Of a stretch of 64,000 nucleotides of DNA, positions 730 through 63,000 are shown piece after piece. Below the pieces are notes generated by a model that was not told the origin of the DNA, did no database searches, and saw only the letters and a program-made list of their open reading frames with translations. Each line of letters begins with the position of its first letter. Position 1 is the stretch's first letter. This DNA is from Anaeramoeba ignava BMAN (Eukaryota; Protista; Anaeramoebae). A program made the position numbers and the translations under genes. The DNA lies in contig JAPDFW010000022.1 in assembly GCA_028826165.1 (NCBI GenBank), positions 752,758-816,757 on the forward strand, written 5' to 3'.

Positions 730-839
730 TTTTAAGAATGTAAAAAGAAAAAAATGAAAAAAAAAAAAGCAAAAAAAAAAACTTTTTCCTTAATTTTTTT
801 TTTAATTTTTTAAATTTTTATTTTTTTTTTATTCCTAAA

Positions 840-3879: not shown

Positions 3880-6702
3880 CTAATTAAATCTCTTTAAAAA
3901 TTGTTGATATTTTTGATTAGTTTCCATCAATAAAATATTTAAATAAGAATTCTTATTTAATTGATAAAAATCATGAGCATCAAAAAGTTGATTTGTTATT
4001 TCTTTAGAAATATGTTTAGAAGAAAAATCATCCAAATAGAAAAACCTAATCAATTCCTCCAAAGCATCAAAAGTTTTCCCACTATAATCACTAACAGATC
4101 CAGAAGAATCATTTACATTCAAAAACATTTCTCGAAATAACTCACTTCTGGCAAGCAAAATAACCTTATGAACCAAAAGCGGTTTCTCTTCAACAAGAAT
4201 TGTAAAGTCTTTTGTTGAATCATCTTGATACAATACTTCCAAGTCTGAGACGAGTTGCGACTTCCCAAATTTCTCAGAGATCCATTTCTGAGAAAATTGC
4301 ATATGTTTAACAAATTTCTTTAAAAATTTCCAAACTAGAGAAAAATTTTCAAGTGGAATTCTTCCTGAATAAATGAATTTGAGAAGAACTAACCCTTCAT
4401 CTTTGCTGTGTTTAATTGCAAAAGTCCTCAAGCGATTTGTAACTTGTTCAAAATATTCAGCGTTTGAAATATTATTAATCAATCGATTCCTCAAGATGAT
4501 TGAATGAACAGAAATTTTCCCATCAAGAAAATCAATTGAAATATCAGTAAACTCTTGCCGAACTAACAAATACTCCATATCTTCTTGGATTGTGCAATAG
4601 CTTTTGAGGATAATTTTGTTTTTGGGATGCGTTATATTCGCAAAAGAATCGATATTTCTCATTGGAAAATAACCTAAAAGAAATTTGAGAAGTTGATGCT
4701 GTTTTGATTTCAATAAACGCTCAGCAAAATCACGAAATTTCGAAATATCAAATGGAACTCCAATTTGGAATAGTTTCTGCAATATGCTTTGATGAATTTT
4801 CTTTATGTATAAAAGGGATTGCAGAAAAGTTTCAGAATTTCCAGGAAAATCAGAAATATCATAACAATCAGAAATCAATAATTCAACCATTTTGGGAAAA
4901 TTAGATGAGTTTGGAATTGAATCAAGAGGGGTTCTTTGGTAATTACTTTTGATGCGAATATCTGCACCAAGACTGATGAGATTTTTCATTTCCTCAAATA
5001 GTGAGTTTTCACAAGCAATATGAAGTGGGGTTTTTCCAAGATTATTTTTTGAATTGATATCTAACCCCTTTTCCAATAGAAATTTGATTGCATCCAACTC
5101 ACAAGGATGCTCCACAAGAAGATGAAGAAGATTATTATGTCCGTATCGGGTAATCTGTGCGAAATCAGTGTTCTCATTTGAGAGAATCCTCAAAATATCA
5201 ACCGAATAAGGTTTTTTACATGCTTTTTGCAAAGCAATTTCTTCTTCAATATTTTTCAAATTCACATCAACTCCTTTCTCAACCATTTTCTTCAGGAAAT
5301 ACTCCTTTTGAGAACAAGAAGATTCCAGAACTTTACACAAAATGGGGTCATTTTGCTGTTTAGAGTGATTAATATCAGGACACTTATCAACCAAATAATC
5401 AAGAATTTCAAACCGAATATTGTGTGATGAAAAAGCGTAATATAATCCACATTCCAATCTTACGCGTTGGAGATGAAGTTGTGATCCATGTTTGAAGAGT
5501 AATTCAATTATTTCAATATCAGGATCATAAGAAAATGTTGTGAATAATGGTGTAAATCCTCCTTGATTAAAAACATTCAATTCTGTTCCGTTTTCCAATA
5601 AAAACTTAAAAATCTCATACAATTCCTTCTTCGGATGCTTGCAGAGAATATGAATAGGAAGCGATTGAGAGATGCTTCTCTTGTTAATCAACTTATTTTT
5701 TAATGAATTTTCTGAAGGAATCATTACAAGAAGTGTTTCGAGATTGGAATTCCCAGATCCACAGAAACCGTGGACACAATTCTTCTGGCGTGAAGTTTCT
5801 TCGAGAACATCAGCTCCATATTTTATGCAAAATTGGATAACTTCTGGGGGTGTATTCGGGTTTTTCGATACAACATAAAGTGGTGTCACAAAATATCTTG
5901 AATAAGTTCTCCATTGTTTTTTCAATTTTCTTTCGTATATCAGCTTGAAAATATAAATAGCAATTATAAAATCCTTCTTAACATTATCCTCTAAATTAAT
6001 ACCAAACTCGCTCTTTTTATTCTGTTTCTCCTCTATGATTTTTTTAAAGGAATTTAAATCCAAATTTGCGATGATTTGATTTTCTTCAATGGTTTTATTC
6101 GTATTATCTTTTTGATTGTTTTGATTTCCAGAATCACTTGATAGAAAATTTGACTCAGATGAATTTTTTTGGATCAATTCAACGATTTTAATTGCCTCAG
6201 AAGTTGGTGGAATGTTGAGTAATTGCAATAATAAAAAAATATCCAATTTTTGTGTTTTTTGGATCATAAAAATCAAAATATCAAATCGGCATCTCATTCC
6301 AATAGCTTTTTGCAAAATAGGCAAAGAAACATTCACTTTGCTTGAAACTATTCTCTTGAGAAGATTCAGAGAACATTTAGCGTTTAAAGCGAATAAAAGG
6401 CAATCTGGAACCAAAGACAGATCTGCTCCAGATGAAATCATTAAATCAGCAATTTTTTCATTAAATCGTTTTTTATTCGAAAGTAAATAATAAATTGGTG
6501 GATTCGAATAATTATCAAGATTGTTGATTGGAACCCCAATTTCAATTAAAAATTTAATTAATTCTGGTTCTGGATTTGTTATTGTACAAGCAATATGTAG
6601 TAAATTTTTGGATTCAAAATTTTTTGATAAAAGAATTTGTTTATCAAGTGATTTTATTTGTGGAAATTGATTTTTAAGAAAATTTCGATCAAAAATTTCC
6701 AT
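3880..6702 (-). CDS. Intronless ankyrin-repeat protein with C-terminal tandem BTB/POZ domains (940 aa)
   Basis: Many ANK motifs (GKTPLHIAC, GFTPLF, NLLHIAC); BTB motifs FTDISI..ISVHSIIL and DFTILVEEKPLLVHKVILLARSELF. Confidence 0.9.
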   Translation of the reverse strand: MEIFDRNFLKNQFPQIKSLDKQILLSKNFESKNLLHIACTITNPEPELIKFLIEIGVPINNLDNYSNPPIYYLLSNKKRFNEKIADLMISSGADLSLVPDCLLFALNAKCSLNLLKRIVSSKVNVSLPILQKAIGMRCRFDILIFMIQKTQKLDIFLLLQLLNIPPTSEAIKIVELIQKNSSESNFLSSDSGNQNNQKDNTNKTIEENQIIANLDLNSFKKIIEEKQNKKSEFGINLEDNVKKDFIIAIYIFKLIYERKLKKQWRTYSRYFVTPLYVVSKNPNTPPEVIQFCIKYGADVLEETSRQKNCVHGFCGSGNSNLETLLVMIPSENSLKNKLINKRSISQSLPIHILCKHPKKELYEIFKFLLENGTELNVFNQGGFTPLFTTFSYDPDIEIIELLFKHGSQLHLQRVRLECGLYYAFSSHNIRFEILDYLVDKCPDINHSKQQNDPILCKVLESSCSQKEYFLKKMVEKGVDVNLKNIEEEIALQKACKKPYSVDILRILSNENTDFAQITRYGHNNLLHLLVEHPCELDAIKFLLEKGLDINSKNNLGKTPLHIACENSLFEEMKNLISLGADIRIKSNYQRTPLDSIPNSSNFPKMVELLISDCYDISDFPGNSETFLQSLLYIKKIHQSILQKLFQIGVPFDISKFRDFAERLLKSKQHQLLKFLLGYFPMRNIDSFANITHPKNKIILKSYCTIQEDMEYLLVRQEFTDISIDFLDGKISVHSIILRNRLINNISNAEYFEQVTNRLRTFAIKHSKDEGLVLLKFIYSGRIPLENFSLVWKFLKKFVKHMQFSQKWISEKFGKSQLVSDLEVLYQDDSTKDFTILVEEKPLLVHKVILLARSELFREMFLNVNDSSGSVSDYSGKTFDALEELIRFFYLDDFSSKHISKEITNQLFDAHDFYQLNKNSYLNILLMETNQKYQQFLKRFN

Positions 6703-6749
6703 TTCAAAATGAAAAATGAAAAAAAAGAAAAATAAAAAAATGAAAAAAA

Positions 6750-7241
6750 ATGATTTTAATTTTGATTTTAATTTTGATTTTGATTTTGATTTTATTTTTA
6801 ATTTTAATTTTAATTTTAATTTTAATTTTAATTTTAATTTTAATTTTAATTTTGATTTTGATTTTGATTTTGATTTTAATTTTGATTTTGATTTAATTTT
6901 AATTTTGATTTTGATTTTGATTTTGATTTTGATTTTAATTTTGATTTTAATTTTGATTTTAATTTTGATTTTGATTTTGATTTTGATTTAGATTTTGATT
7001 TTAATATTAATTTTGATTTTGATTTTAATTTTGATTTTGATTTTAATTTTAATTTTAATTTTAATTTTAATTTTGATTTTAATTTTGATTTTGATTTTAA
7101 TTTAAATTTTAAATTTTAAATTTGATTTTGATTTTAATTTTGATTTTAATTATAATTTTAATTTTGATTTTAATTTTAATTTTAATTTTGATTTTGATTT
7201 TGATTTTGATTTTTATTTTAATTTTGATTTTAATTTTGATT
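6750..7241. repeat. (TTTTGA/TTTTAA)n microsatellite
   Basis: Visible hexamer periodicity. Confidence 0.9.
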
Positions 7242-57340: not shown

Positions 57341-59071
57341 ATGTCTTTCTCTCAAAATTCTTTTCAAGAAATTCTTCAAGCAATTCAAAAAAATGATACA
57401 AAAAAACTTGAAATTCTTCTTAAAAAAGATCTTGAAATTCCAGTTTTTATTTCTCAAATTTTTTATAAAAGAAAAATAATAATAATTAAAAATATTTTTT
57501 TTTCTAAACAAACAAACAAACAAAAGTTATTAAAACTTTTTGTTCTTGCAATTCGACTTGGAAATAAAGAAATTGTTCAAATTTTTATTAATAAAGAATT
57601 TGATTTAAATTCTCATGATGTAAAAAGAAAGAAAAGAAAGAAATATAAATTTTCAATTAATATTTCAATTAATATTTTGCATAAAATTTAGGATGTAAAT
57701 TATTTATAATAAAATTCATTTTAAATCAAAAATAATTTAGTTTCTTTTCGTTTTTTAAAAAAAAAGGTTGTAAAAAAATTATTTATTATTTTTGTTTTTA
57801 TAAAAATATCGATCAATTTGATTTATAAATCCCAAATAGAATAAAACACCATTGCATTTTGCATTGGACAATAAAAATGCCAAGGAAGATATTATTAAAT
57901 TATTAATTGATTCAGGAGCAAATGTTAATGCACAAACTGTAGAAAACAAAATTTTAATAATTTGTTTTTTTCAATTTAAAAAAAATTAATCAAAAATCCA
58001 GAATGTAATTAATTAATTCATTCATTGTAAATTCTATTTCAGAAAAGAAACAAAATTTCTTATTAATTCTCATTTTTTTAATAATTTAGAATGTATTTTT
58101 GATTTTTATTAATTTTGATTTAATTAATTAATTAATTAATAATAATAATAAAGTTAATAACTCCTCTTCATTTAGCTTGTCGCAATTCTGTTTCAATTTC
58201 TATTATTAAATTATTGCTATCATCAAATGCTCAAATTAATCAAATTACAGTAAATAAAATTTATATTTTATTCCACTTTTTTTTTGAACAAAAATTAAAA
58301 ATCAAAAAAATATACTTTTTTAGAAAGTAATTTTATTTTGAAAAATAAGGAAAAAGAACTAATCTTTTTAAATCCTCCTATTCATTTTCTTTATTAAATA
58401 ATAAAGGATGTAAATTTTATTTATAATTTTATATTTTTAAAAAACTAAACTTTTCAAAACAAATTTAGAAAAAAACTCCATTACATTTTGTTTGTTTAGC
58501 GAATAATATTTCAAATCCAATTATAGAATTATTACTAAATTCAGGTGCAGATCCAAATATTCAAGATGTTATTATTTATATAATTTTAAATCAACAGAAA
58601 AAACAAAACAAAACAATTATTCATAAAATCTATTTTGAATTAATAGGAAGTATTTTATCTATTATATATTTATTATTTTACTTAGTGTTAATTTGTTTTG
58701 AAAGCAAGTAAATTTATTTTTTTATATAGTTTAAATTTCAAATTTAATCAAAAATTCATTCATTTTTGATTAAATTATAGTTATCAACCCCATTCCATTT
58801 ATATTGCAAAATTAGACCCTCTTTAGATATTTTAAAACTTTTCCTTAAATTTGGTGCAAATTTGAATTTAAAAGATGTAATTTTCAAATAATTTAATTTT
58901 AATTTTAAATTTATATTTTATATTTTAAATTTTAAATTTTATATTTTAGATTGTAAATTGAGTTTTTTTTTTTGCAATATTCTTTGCAAATTTTTAATAT
59001 TTCATTTTTAAAGAATGTAAATCAATAAGATCAAAAAAATGTCAAAAAATTTTTTTTATAATTATTATTCT

Positions 59072-59103
<32 letters not shown>

Positions 59104-61008
59104 ATCTATTTTTTCTGTTGAAATAAAAAGGGAAATACTCCTTTACATATTTCATGTGAAAAAAATGCAGATCCACAATGTATTCTTTTTTTAATAAATT
59201 CTGGAGCAAATATTAATGAAAAAACTGTAAAGAGAAAAATAGGATATTTTTAAAAAAAAACTTCAACTTATAATATTCTTTTTTATTTTATTTTCTTTTA
59301 GATTGTATATTCACATTTAAAAGAAATCCAAAATCTAACAAAATACGATTCATACATTTCATTTTTGTTTTAATAATAAGGATGTAAAATTTTATTATTT
59401 GAGAAAAGAAAAATATTTATGATTTAATGAATTAATTTATTTAGTCTAGAACACCTTTACATTTAGCTTGTGAAAATGATGTTAATCCAGAAATTGTGAA
59501 AGTATTAATTGAAAACGGAGCAGAAGTTAATTGCGAAGATGTAAATTAATTTTTCTTTAAATTCTCTTTCTTTTTGTTTGTTTCTTGTTTTAAACAAAAG
59601 TTCTTTTTAGGCTGTAAAAAAAAAGAAGAGAAAAAAATATAAATAAATAGAATGATTGTTTAATAAAAGAAATGGAATGGGAAAAAAAACATTGTTTTAG
59701 TTTGTAATTTCTTCAATTTTTTTTAACTAATTCTTTCTTTTATTAATCTTAATTTCTATTTTAGTATGTAATTTAAAAATTTAAAAAAATTTTTTCATTC
59801 TTTTAAATGGATTAAAAAAAAATTCCACATTTTGATTAGAAAAAAAATCCTTTGCATCTTGCTTGTAGAAAAGAAGCAAGTACATCAATAATTGCTTTAT
59901 TACTTGATAATGGTGCAAATCTTGAAAATAAGGATGTAAAAATTTTGAAAATAAAAAGAAAGAAACAAAGAAAAATTGAATTTTTTTTTATTAAATAAAT
60001 TAATAGTGGGTTTGATTTAAAAGAAAGAAAGAAAAAAAGAAAGAAAGAAATTTTGACATTTTTTTTACAATAGAAAGTAAAAAAATCAAAAAAAAAAAAT
60101 AATATAAATGGAATGATTTTATTATAAAAAAAAAATTTATTATTTAGGATGTATTTTTATAATATGCAAATTTTTAGAAATTATAATTAAAACAAAGTTC
60201 TCTTTTAACCATTTTGTAATTTAGAAAGTAATTTTATAAAATGGAATAAATTTTTTTTTTCTTCTCAATTTATTTTTGATGATCAAAACAAAACAAAACA
60301 AAAAAATAAACATTTGATGAAAAGGTTCCATTTGATTTAGCAAATGAAAAAACCAAGAAATTTATGATTTGTTATAATAGTTATGCTCAAGATATGAAGA
60401 GATTATCAAAGTTGGATCAAACCTGTGATCTTTACATAAAAAATAACGGAAAAACAATAGGATTTCATAAGTGTATTTTAAATGCAAGATTAAAAAAGAA
60501 AAAATCAATTGAAGAAATTGAAAGATATTTTGAGAAAATGAAAGACTCTGATTTATTACTTTTGAAAAGATATATTTATACAGGGTTTGTTGAAGATCAA
60601 GAAGAATTTGAACGAGTTGAAGATCATTTTAAAAAAATGGGAATTGAGGAAAAAATCAAGAAAAACAATAAAGATCAATTAGTGAAAGATATATCGCAAC
60701 TTTATTATGATCAAGAAAGCAAAGATTTTACAATTTTGATTGAATCAAGTGAAATTAAAGTTCATAAAGCGATATTAATTGCTAGAAGTGAAATTTATAA
60801 AGGAATGTTTTTGAGTGTTAATGATGATTCTAATTCTGTTCATGATTATTCTGGAAAAGGAATTGAATCTTTTAATACTTTTATTAAGTTTTTATATTTT
60901 GATTCAATTGATTCAGATCAAAGTGAAATTTTGATGGATTTGGAAGAACTTTATGATTATTATCAACTTAATGAGAATTCCCTTTTGCGTTTTGAACTTG
61001 ATTTTTGA
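57341..61008 (+). CDS. Ankyrin-repeat + tandem BTB protein (about 537 aa) with about 28 phase-0 introns; main exons 57341-57442, 57527-57619, 57840-57938, 58154-58249, 58469-58567, 58781-58876, 59131-59226, 59445-59540, 59840-59935, 60325-61008, plus 19 3-nt micro-exons
   Basis: Seven 96/99-nt exons each encode one ANK repeat (NKTPLHFA.., LITPLHLAC.., KKTPLHFVC.., LSTPFHLYC.., GNTPLHISC.., SRTPLHLAC.., KKNPLHLAC..) bounded by AG/GT. The last exon VPFDLANEK.. is in frame with ORF 60364-61008 (BTB motif DFTILIESSEIKVHKAILIARS). Confidence 0.9.
57692..60227 (+). other. Array of 19 single-codon micro-exons (AG|NNN|GT)
   Basis: Starts: 57692 GAT, 57767 GTT; 58002 AAT, 58090 AAT; 58324 AAA, 58407 GAT; 58647 GAA, 58705 CAA; 58950 ATT, 59014 AAT; 59302 ATT, 59381 GAT; 59611 GCT, 59701 TTT, 59765 TAT; 60007 TGG, 60074 AAA, 60148 GAT, 60225 AAA. 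Confidence 0.85.
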
Positions 61009-61099
61009 TTTTTGAATTTTATTTTCAACAAGATCTTTTTCAAAATCAAATTAAAATCAAAAATGATTTCCATTTTTCAATTTTAGATTAAATTTGGTT

Positions 61100-63000
61100 T
61101 TAATTTAATTTTAAATTGATTTTAAATTGATTTTAATTTGATTTAAATTGATTTTAAATTGATTTTAAATTGATTTTAATTTGATTTTAAATTTGATTTT
61201 AAATTGATTTTAAATTGATTTTAAATTGATTTTAAATTGATTTAATTTGATTTTAAATTGATTTTAAATTGATTTTAAATTGATTTTAAATTTGATTTAA
61301 ATTTGATTTTAAATTGATTTTAAATTGATTTTAATTTGATTTTAAATTGATTTTAATTTGATTTTAATTTGATTTTAAATTGATTTTAAATTTGATTTTA
61401 AATTGATTTGATTTTAAATTGATTTTAAATTGATTTTAAATTGATTTTAAATTGATTTAAATTGATTTTAAATTGATTTTAAATTGATTTTGATTTGATT
61501 TTAATTTGATTTTAAATTGATTTAAAATTGATTTTAAATTGATTTTAAATTTGATTTTAAATTGATTTTAAATTTGATTTTAAATTGATTTTAAATTTGA
61601 TTTTAAATTGATTTTAAATTGATTTTAAATTGATTTTAATTTGATTTTAAATTTGATTTTAAATTGATTTTAAATTGATTTTAAATTGATTTTAAATTGA
61701 TTTTGATTTGATTTTAATTTGATTTTAAATTGATTTAAAATTGATTTTAAATTGATTTTAAATTTGATTTTAAATTGATTTTAAATTTGATTTAAATTGA
61801 TTTTAAATTGATTTTAAATTGATTTTAATTTGATTTTAAATTTGATTTTAAATTGATGATTTTAAATTGATTTTAAATTGATTTTGATTTGATTTTAAAT
61901 TGATTTTAAATTGATTTTAATTTGATTTTAAATTGATTTTGATTTGATTTTGATTTGATTTTAAATTGATTTTAAATTGATTTTAAATTGATTTTGGTTT
62001 GATTTTAAATTTGATTTTAATTTGATTTTAAATTTGATTTTAGTTAGATTTTAAATTGATTTTAAATTGATTTTAAATTGATTTTAAATTGATTTTGATT
62101 TGATTTTAATTTGATTTTAAATTGATTTAAAATTGATTTTAAATTGATTTTAAATTTGATTTAAATTGATTTTAAATTGATTTTAAATTGATTTTAAATT
62201 GATTTTAATTTGATTTAAATTGATTTTAAATTGATTTTAAATTGATTTTAAATTGATTTTGATTTGATTTTAAATTGATTTTAAATTGATTTTAATTTGA
62301 TTTTAAATTGATTTTGATTTGATTTTGATTTGATTTTAAATTGATTTTAAATTGATTTTAAATTGATTTTAAATTGATTTAAAATTGATTTTAAATTGAT
62401 TTTAAATTTGATTTTAATTTGATTTTAAATTGATTTTAAATTGATTTTAAATTGATTTTAAATTGATTTTAAATTGATTTTAAATTGATTTTAAATTGAT
62501 TTTAATTTGATTTAAATTTGATTTAAATTTGATTTTAATTTGATTTTAATTTGATTTTAATTTGATTTTAATTTGATTTTAATTTGATTTTAATTTGATT
62601 TTGATTTGATTTTGATTTGATTTTAAATTTGATTTTAATTTGATTTTAAATTTGATTTTAGTTAGATTTTAAATTTGATTTTAATTTGATTTTAAATTGA
62701 TTTTAATTTGATTTTAAATTGATTTTAAATTGATTTTAAATTGATTTTAATTTGATTTTAAATTTGATTTTAATTTGATTTTAAATTGATTTTAAATTGA
62801 TTTTAAATTGATTTTAATTTGATTTTAATTTGATTTTAAATTGATTTAAAATTGATTTTAAATTGATTTAAATTTGATTTTAAATTGATTTTAAATTGAT
62901 TTTAAATTGATTTTAAATTGATTTTAAATTTGATTTTAAATTGATTTTAAATTGATTTTGGTTTGATTTTAATTTGATTTTAAATTGATTTTAGTTAGAT
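61100..63000. repeat. 11-nt intergenic satellite (AAATTGATTTT)n
   Basis: Visible periodicity. Confidence 0.95.

Follow-up and report, generated by a model that had tools for sequence, protein, structure and literature searches.

An ankyrin-BTB gene of Anaeramoeba ignava with probable one-codon exons

We analysed a 64,000-nt stretch of the Anaeramoeba ignava genome, referred to here as the window, which is very AT-rich over its whole length. It contains a gene for a protein with ankyrin repeats and a BTB domain, for which we built a model of 29 exons (Table 1). With every micro-exon counted in, the model encodes 537 aa. The length of each of the 29 exons is divisible by three, and all 28 introns are of the GT-AG type and in phase 0, with sizes ranging from 55 to 114 nt (median 72). 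In the longest intron (114 nt, 59017-59130, + strand), the extra length comes from a TA microsatellite and not from a hidden exon, and we found no clear branch-point motif in the introns of the gene. Nineteen of the 29 exons consist of a single codon. Each of the 19 is found at a junction where the upstream ankyrin exon ends in D/T and the downstream one starts with a TPLH-type motif; none of them is a stop codon. The residues they encode are, from junction 1 to junction 8, D,V; N,N; K,D; E,Q; I,N; I,D; A,F,Y; and W,K,D,K.

Table 1. Features of the ankyrin-BTB gene; positions are those of the window.
Feature	Position	Strand	Details and basis
Ankyrin-repeat and BTB gene, Anaeramoeba ignava	57341..61008	+	29-exon model built by coordinates
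Junction 1	57620..57839	+	One-codon exons GAT 57692, GTT 57767
Junction 2	57939..58153	+	One-codon exons AAT 58002, AAT 58090
Junction 3	58250..58468	+	One-codon exons AAA 58324, GAT 58407
Junction 4	58568..58780	+	One-codon exons GAA 58647, CAA 58705
Junction 5	58877..59130	+	One-codon exons ATT 58950, AAT 59014
Junction 6	59227..59444	+	One-codon exons ATT 59302, GAT 59381
Large exon, 32 codons, ankyrin helices ending ...GAEVNCED	59445..59540	+	Boundaries as in P0001
Junction 7: intron D-to-A, 70 nt	59541..59610	+	Purine fraction 0.31; intron comparison
Junction 7: one-codon exon GCT (Ala)	59611..59613	+	AG/GT flanks
Junction 7: intron A-to-F, 87 nt	59614..59700	+	Purine fraction 0.76, 5 internal AG; intron comparison, pairing prediction
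Junction 7: one-codon exon TTT (Phe)	59701..59703	+	AG/GT flanks
Junction 7: intron F-to-Y, 61 nt	59704..59764	+	Purine fraction 0.28; intron comparison
Junction 7: one-codon exon TAT (Tyr)	59765..59767	+	AG/GT flanks
Junction 7: intron Y-to-K, 72 nt	59768..59839	+	Intron comparison
Large exon opening KKNPLHLAC, next ankyrin repeat	59840..59935	+	Coordinate-built model
Junction 8	59936..60324	+	One-codon exons TGG 60007, AAA 60074, GAT 60148, AAA 60225
Last exon, BTB/POZ domain	60325..61008	+	Pfam PF00651; identity to P0001

The public A. ignava protein P0001 is 100% identical to the last exon (60325-61005), and a Pfam search of P0001 returned only ankyrin families and BTB (PF00023, E 7.7e-46; PF00651, E 6.7e-14 to 6.4e-12). 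The P0001 model is devoid of all 19 micro-exon residues. At junction 4 it translates intron sequence (58568-58780), giving a spurious hydrophobic stretch with loss of the start of one ankyrin repeat. The same window harbors a second ankyrin-BTB gene (3880-6987, − strand), which is one unbroken frame of 1035 codons; the family thus has intronless members alongside those with micro-exons. Right after the micro-exon gene, a low-complexity repeat of the TTGATTTTAAA type extends over approximately 1.9 kb (61090-63000), and similar AT-rich simple repeats occupy many introns and spacers of the window.

One-codon sites were far more frequent in the gene than in dinucleotide shuffles. In the eight inter-repeat regions we counted 19 against approximately 0.96 expected. 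At junction 7 alone, the loose pattern matched three times (shuffle mean 0.197, with 1 of 1000 shuffles reaching three), as did the strict pattern TTTAG-NNN-GTAA (mean 0.003, with 0 of 1000 shuffles reaching three). When AG-to-GT gaps of 0 to 9 nt were compared within the gene, the 3-nt class had 20 matches and every other class 0 to 4; this class was enriched in the gene only and not in the rest of the window. A lone site of this kind, ttttaag AAT gtaaaaag at 737-739 (+ strand), lies some 100 nt ahead of the probable start codon of a long membrane-protein ORF (744-2807) and is either a chance match or a 5′ exon. Searching for two 3-nt exons ahead of a TPLH exon gave three matching sites in the window. 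A slightly altered version of this pattern also hit two loci on metagenome contigs, which we rejected as chance matches, being GC-rich and having no ankyrin frame. Judged from the sequence, GCT, TTT, and TAT of junction 7 are very probably real one-codon exons.

Junction 7 and the length of ankyrin hairpins

The sequence-only reading had placed three triplets at junction 7, and each of them indeed has the form AG-NNN-GTAA (ctttttag GCT gtaaaa, gttttag TTT gtaattt, and attttag TAT gtaattt). They divide positions 59541-59839 into four GT-AG introns, all of ordinary length and with donors that score like the others in the gene. The acceptor of the Phe exon is the weakest at this junction (1.6 bits vs 5.6-6.4 bits), with no pyrimidine tract before TTT. 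None of the other seven junctions has more exons than the canonical spacing of four residues between D/T and TPLH allows: each of them gives exactly four, and junction 7 gives five if all its exons are used. At junction 8 the next exon begins at VP, so that four residues make a canonical hairpin, and four exons are present. One of them, TGG at 60007, has the weakest donor of the gene (GTTTGA, 60007-60012; -3.3 bits) yet is needed for the canonical last hairpin. As the only junction with a surplus exon, junction 7 is, as had been proposed from the sequence, the best site for testing splicing-based diversification. Its transcript forms can be written as GAAGAT, followed by a combination of GCT, TTT, and TAT, followed by AAAAAAAATCC, the all-included form being GAAGAT GCT TTT TAT AAAAAA.

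The claim that this junction needs two residues proved too strict. In profile counts, hairpins one residue longer than canonical (+1 hairpins) accounted for 7 of 81 in 16 ankyrin proteins of A. ignava that have no short hairpins, for 6 of 81 in 10 further ankyrin-BTB proteins, and for 224 of 3781 in 266 other proteins. Hairpins two residues short occurred in 12 of the 3781. At the observed +1 rates, a gene with eight junctions would have at least one +1 hairpin with a chance of 0.39 to 0.51, that is, about an even chance. Several +1 hairpins carry Tyr at the same position as in junction 7 (QTYKQ, KKYKE, KLYNE). This match is a weak one because Tyr or another aromatic residue three positions before T is about equally common in canonical hairpins (25/144, vs 3/13 in +1 hairpins). 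In a single-sequence AlphaFold2 model of the paralog P0067, two +1 hairpins lie in repeats with block pLDDT values of 89 to 94; the mean pLDDT of that model is 64.5 and its BTB part is poor. Hairpin profile scores were 0.89 bits for F-Y, 0.19 for A-Y, and -0.75 for A-F, differences too small to separate the four possible forms.

We also looked at paralogs for which transcript-derived proteins are available. The A. ignava ankyrin-kinase genome model P0084 (771 aa) clusters with the EukProt protein P0180 (792 aa), which has a transcript-style name. The 21 extra residues of P0180 form ten 2-residue insertions and one 1-residue insertion, the two proteins being otherwise identical, and all 11 insertions are located at ankyrin hairpins. 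Likewise, P0179 differs from P0063 by one 2-residue hairpin insertion. The hairpins restored in P0180 (11) and in P0179 (1) are all of canonical length, none being +1. By analogy with P0180, one-codon pieces are likely to reach the mRNA; the paralog insertions, seen at the protein level, would correspond to 3-nt exons if the present window is a guide. Cluster look-ups of 30 proteins found a transcript-style partner for two genome models, P0084 and P0063, and among the 17 short-hairpin models looked up, for P0084 alone. For the ankyrin-BTB gene itself, four kinds of protein searches found no transcript-derived copy and only the genome model P0001; they covered longer proteins with the BTB exon, shorter ones with residues 225-335 (best identity 44%), proteins of near length, and 50% representatives.

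Of 51 proteins from Anaeramoeba or similar to it that were scored with the profile, 19 had at least two short hairpins. Six of the 19 are assigned to A. ignava and one to A. flamelloides; cluster look-ups of ten of the remaining twelve identified all ten as A. ignava genome models, so that at least 16 A. ignava models belong to this group. From these protein sequences, the micro-exon layout is likely to be family-wide and to have been missed by annotation. In P0093 (A. flamelloides) and in P0245 and P0065 (A. ignava), hairpins are three or four residues short, which suggests three or four missed one-codon exons at these junctions. The layout may be common to both Anaeramoeba species.

Readings of the surplus codon

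We lean, with slightly less than even confidence, toward the reading in which GCT, TTT, and TAT are all included in the mRNA, so that the hairpin of this repeat would have one residue more than the others (D-A-F-Y-K-K before NPLH). Skipped forms would probably occur at a low level beside the all-included form. A one-residue-longer loop had been the second option of the sequence-only reading, and it gains from the ordinary occurrence of +1 hairpins in paralogs. Inclusion also looks like the rule of this gene because seven of its eight junctions carry the exact exon number of a canonical hairpin, and the reading is further favored because the splice signals greatly exceed chance and do so only for 3-nt gaps. 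Mechanistically, each of the short AT-rich introns (55-114 nt) would be recognised singly, by intron definition, and removed in turn. A 3-nt exon would then be the mere gap between two introns, and exon recognition would never be required. Four observations argue against the inclusion of all three exons: the 12 of 12 canonical hairpins restored by transcript-derived paralog proteins, the weak Phe acceptor, the two strongest adjacent-intron duplexes of the gene, which sit at junction 7 and are not predicted by constitutive inclusion, and the mini-exons of Tuber, which are reported to be alternatively spliced.

The duplexes bring up a possible competition between Ala and Phe, which we consider a doubtful but serious alternative. 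The A-to-F intron is the most purine-rich of the 28 and its two neighbours are the most pyrimidine-rich (Table 1); a purine-rich intron between two pyrimidine-rich extremes had a permutation value of 0.003, irrespective of position. Among the 27 adjacent-intron duplexes, the two strongest enclose TTT (-26.7 kcal/mol) and GCT (-25.3 kcal/mol), the third reaching -15.4 kcal/mol and the pair around TAT only -7.4 kcal/mol. In the minimum-energy fold of the junction 7 region, TTT sits at the tip of a long stem. The two leading duplexes would compete because both use the A-to-F intron, which would pair with either U-rich neighbour and loop out GCT or TTT. The products would be the canonical hairpins D-A-Y-K-K and D-F-Y-K-K with a constant Tyr, and the three-codon form may coexist with them. 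The profile ranks both A-Y and F-Y above A-F, by small differences.

Against this competition, the pairing signal is post hoc, several features having been examined earlier, and mostly compositional, with equal pairing in 16/300 and 39/300 shuffles. Folding of the whole region gave a z-score of -1.6, and the per-exon values were -0.58 and -1.93, yet the unrelated exon at 58705 reached -3.97. Moreover, non-adjacent intron pairs attain equal energies, and the introns of junction 8 are also purine-rich (0.66-0.68) though its four exons are all required. The unusual A-to-F intron could simply mark a recently gained exon. If junction 7 has a switch, Ala/Phe is more likely than Phe/Tyr. The F-Y form, which was missing from the transcript forms first listed for this junction, is made plausible by the predicted intron pairing.

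It is less likely that one of the three exons, most probably TTT, is dormant or nearly always skipped, leaving a single canonical hairpin, probably A-Y. The spare codon would then be a reserve or a relic. The weakest acceptor of the junction with no pyrimidine tract ahead, the strongest enclosing duplex, and the exclusively canonical hairpins of the 12 restored in paralogs all point to such a fate for TTT. However, the donor of TTT scores with the best (7.8 bits) and its TTTTAG is unbroken, acceptors weaker than that of TTT (-4.0 and -0.1 bits) serve exons required by residue count, and skipping of TTT would require an intron of 151 nt, when the maximum among the 28 is 114 nt.

Even less probable is the first option of the sequence-only reading, in which TTT and TAT are duplicates used in a mutually exclusive manner to give A-F and A-Y loops. 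The two exons do have near-identical contexts, with 13 identical flanking bases, Phe and Tyr are a conservative pair with codons one base apart, and A-F or A-Y would each make a canonical hairpin. Nevertheless, the shared context is that of the splice consensus: 4 of 171 micro-exon pairs share it, the AAA exon at 58324 has the same 13-nt context as TTT and as TAT, and longer runs (14 and 15 bases) are common to two further pairs. Over ±25 nt, 132 of 171 micro-exon pairs match as well as TTT/TAT or better. The flanking introns are unrelated; by alignment score, the similarity of the introns before F and before Y ranked 370 of 378 and that of the introns after F and after Y ranked 152 of 378, and a repeat finder returned a 16-nt core only. 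We rejected a recent tandem duplication as the origin of the pair on these grounds, an old one with introns that have since diverged being possible. No mechanism for the exclusion is visible either. Five other introns are as short as the 61-nt F-Y intron or shorter (55, 59, 61, 61, and 61 nt), and they flank exons required by residue count. All forms are in frame and all introns GT-AG, leaving no frame or intron-class barrier, the introns around TAT pair weakly, and the A-F form has the lowest profile score. Thus, from the initial interpretation of junction 7, the real one-codon exons, the choice of test site, and the longer loop held up, while the duplication, the need for just two residues, and the Phe/Tyr exclusion did not.

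Finally, it is very improbable that the triplets are unused, as in the public model, or that the gene is silent or misassembled here: P0001 skips all 19 and the protein searches gave no transcript-derived copy, but 19 sites stand against about one expected, none is a stop codon, the counts are exact at seven junctions, without the triplets all hairpins would lack two residues (as do only 12/3781 hairpins of other proteins), and the transcript-derived paralog P0180 restores exactly such residues.

Known systems and biological meaning

One-codon exons in ankyrin-repeat genes have a precedent. According to PMC4986451, PMC13449251, and PMC9815663, the NACHT-ankyrin (nank) genes of Tuber melanosporum carry codon-sized mini-exons by the tens or dozens, and these undergo alternative splicing; the original report is Iotti et al. 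2012 (PMID 22289772), known to us through citing papers. As far as these sources describe them, the two systems share 3-nt exons in ankyrin-repeat genes, an expanded family, a symbiotic eukaryotic host, and exons that are in frame by construction. In the A. ignava gene, 3-nt exons with canonical splice signals lie inside ankyrin repeats, all 19 at hairpins. Unlike Tuber, A. ignava is a metamonad amoeba and its proteins are ankyrin-BTB or ankyrin-kinase. Pfam found no NACHT domain in P0001, which is not a member of the nank family. Extensive alternative splicing is reported in the Tuber sources at our disposal, whereas seven of the eight A. ignava junctions have the exact exon number. By analogy, the A. 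ignava gene may work like the nank genes.

Brown algal ROCO-LRR and NB-ARC-TPR receptors diversify by shuffling of repeat-per-exon units (Zambounis 2012, Teng 2023/2024; PMC13449251), in the portions of this work we could read. In both cases a separate phase-0 exon encodes each repeat body; the algae swap or skip entire repeats, whereas the extra exons of A. ignava are single hairpin-tip codons. We saw no spare repeat exons in the A. ignava ankyrin-BTB gene.

In Drosophila Dscam1, clusters of mutually exclusive exons are reportedly chosen through pairing of docking sites with selector sequences. The proposed Ala/Phe competition resembles this arrangement in having one intronic element with two possible partners, each looping out a different exon. 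It differs in that the pairing joins low-complexity A/G-rich and U-rich sequence, the exons are single codons, and no exon is duplicated.

In the papers readable without subscription, we found no report of micro-exons in ankyrin genes of Anaeramoeba or of other protists. The main text of the Anaeramoeba genome paper (PMC11550330), which describes stranded paired RNA-seq reads of 100 bp, has 0 matches for microexon, micro-exon, ankyrin, or BTB. Micro-exons are not mentioned in the accessible parts of that paper (11 of its 15 supplements), of its bioRxiv version (10.1101/2023.03.03.530753), or of the A. pumila preprint (10.64898/2026.04.11.717937). The available part of PMC8229355 held nothing further on loop insertions. 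The ankyrin binding surface consists of the hairpin (beta-turn) and first-helix positions, with positions 2, 3, and 5 among the most variable, according to the sections of PMC4308713 that we consulted.

Like ABTB-type proteins, the product of the A. ignava gene has ankyrin repeats followed by BTB/POZ; unlike them, it belongs to a large Anaeramoeba-specific family with intronless and micro-exon members. A role as Cullin-3 substrate adaptors is known for ankyrin-BTB proteins of the ABTB type. A comparable role is predicted for the A. ignava protein, with the hairpin tips as the portion of its ankyrin binding surface that varies. With the numbering D1-x2-x3-G4-x5-T6, we take the micro-exon codon pair to be ankyrin positions 2 and 3. 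Because each piece is a whole codon, its gain, loss, or skipping alters a hairpin tip by a single residue and leaves the reading frame intact. With such a layout, target binding is likely easier to adjust in evolution, and perhaps also through splicing.

The presence of one-codon exons at ankyrin hairpins in a metamonad, within a different protein architecture, suggests that such a layout originates again and again at one position in the structure. The mostly exact counts suggest, in turn, that it is not always a machine for splicing diversity. For annotation, this means that the very residues predicted to contact targets are absent from no fewer than 16 public models of A. ignava and probably from one of A. 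flamelloides. The family-wide layout is the solid result of this work and the specific Phe/Tyr switch is unlikely. More speculatively, and with no great confidence, Anaeramoeba could have independently evolved both family-wide, codon-by-codon loop exons (in ankyrin-BTB and ankyrin-kinase genes) and competing intron pairing at spare-codon junctions. If so, mutually exclusive one-codon exons, in this case Ala or Phe ahead of a constant Tyr, would swap one residue of a recognition surface in an amoeba that houses symbionts. Junction 7 bears on whether one-codon exons serve to vary proteins inside a single cell or act solely on the evolutionary time scale.
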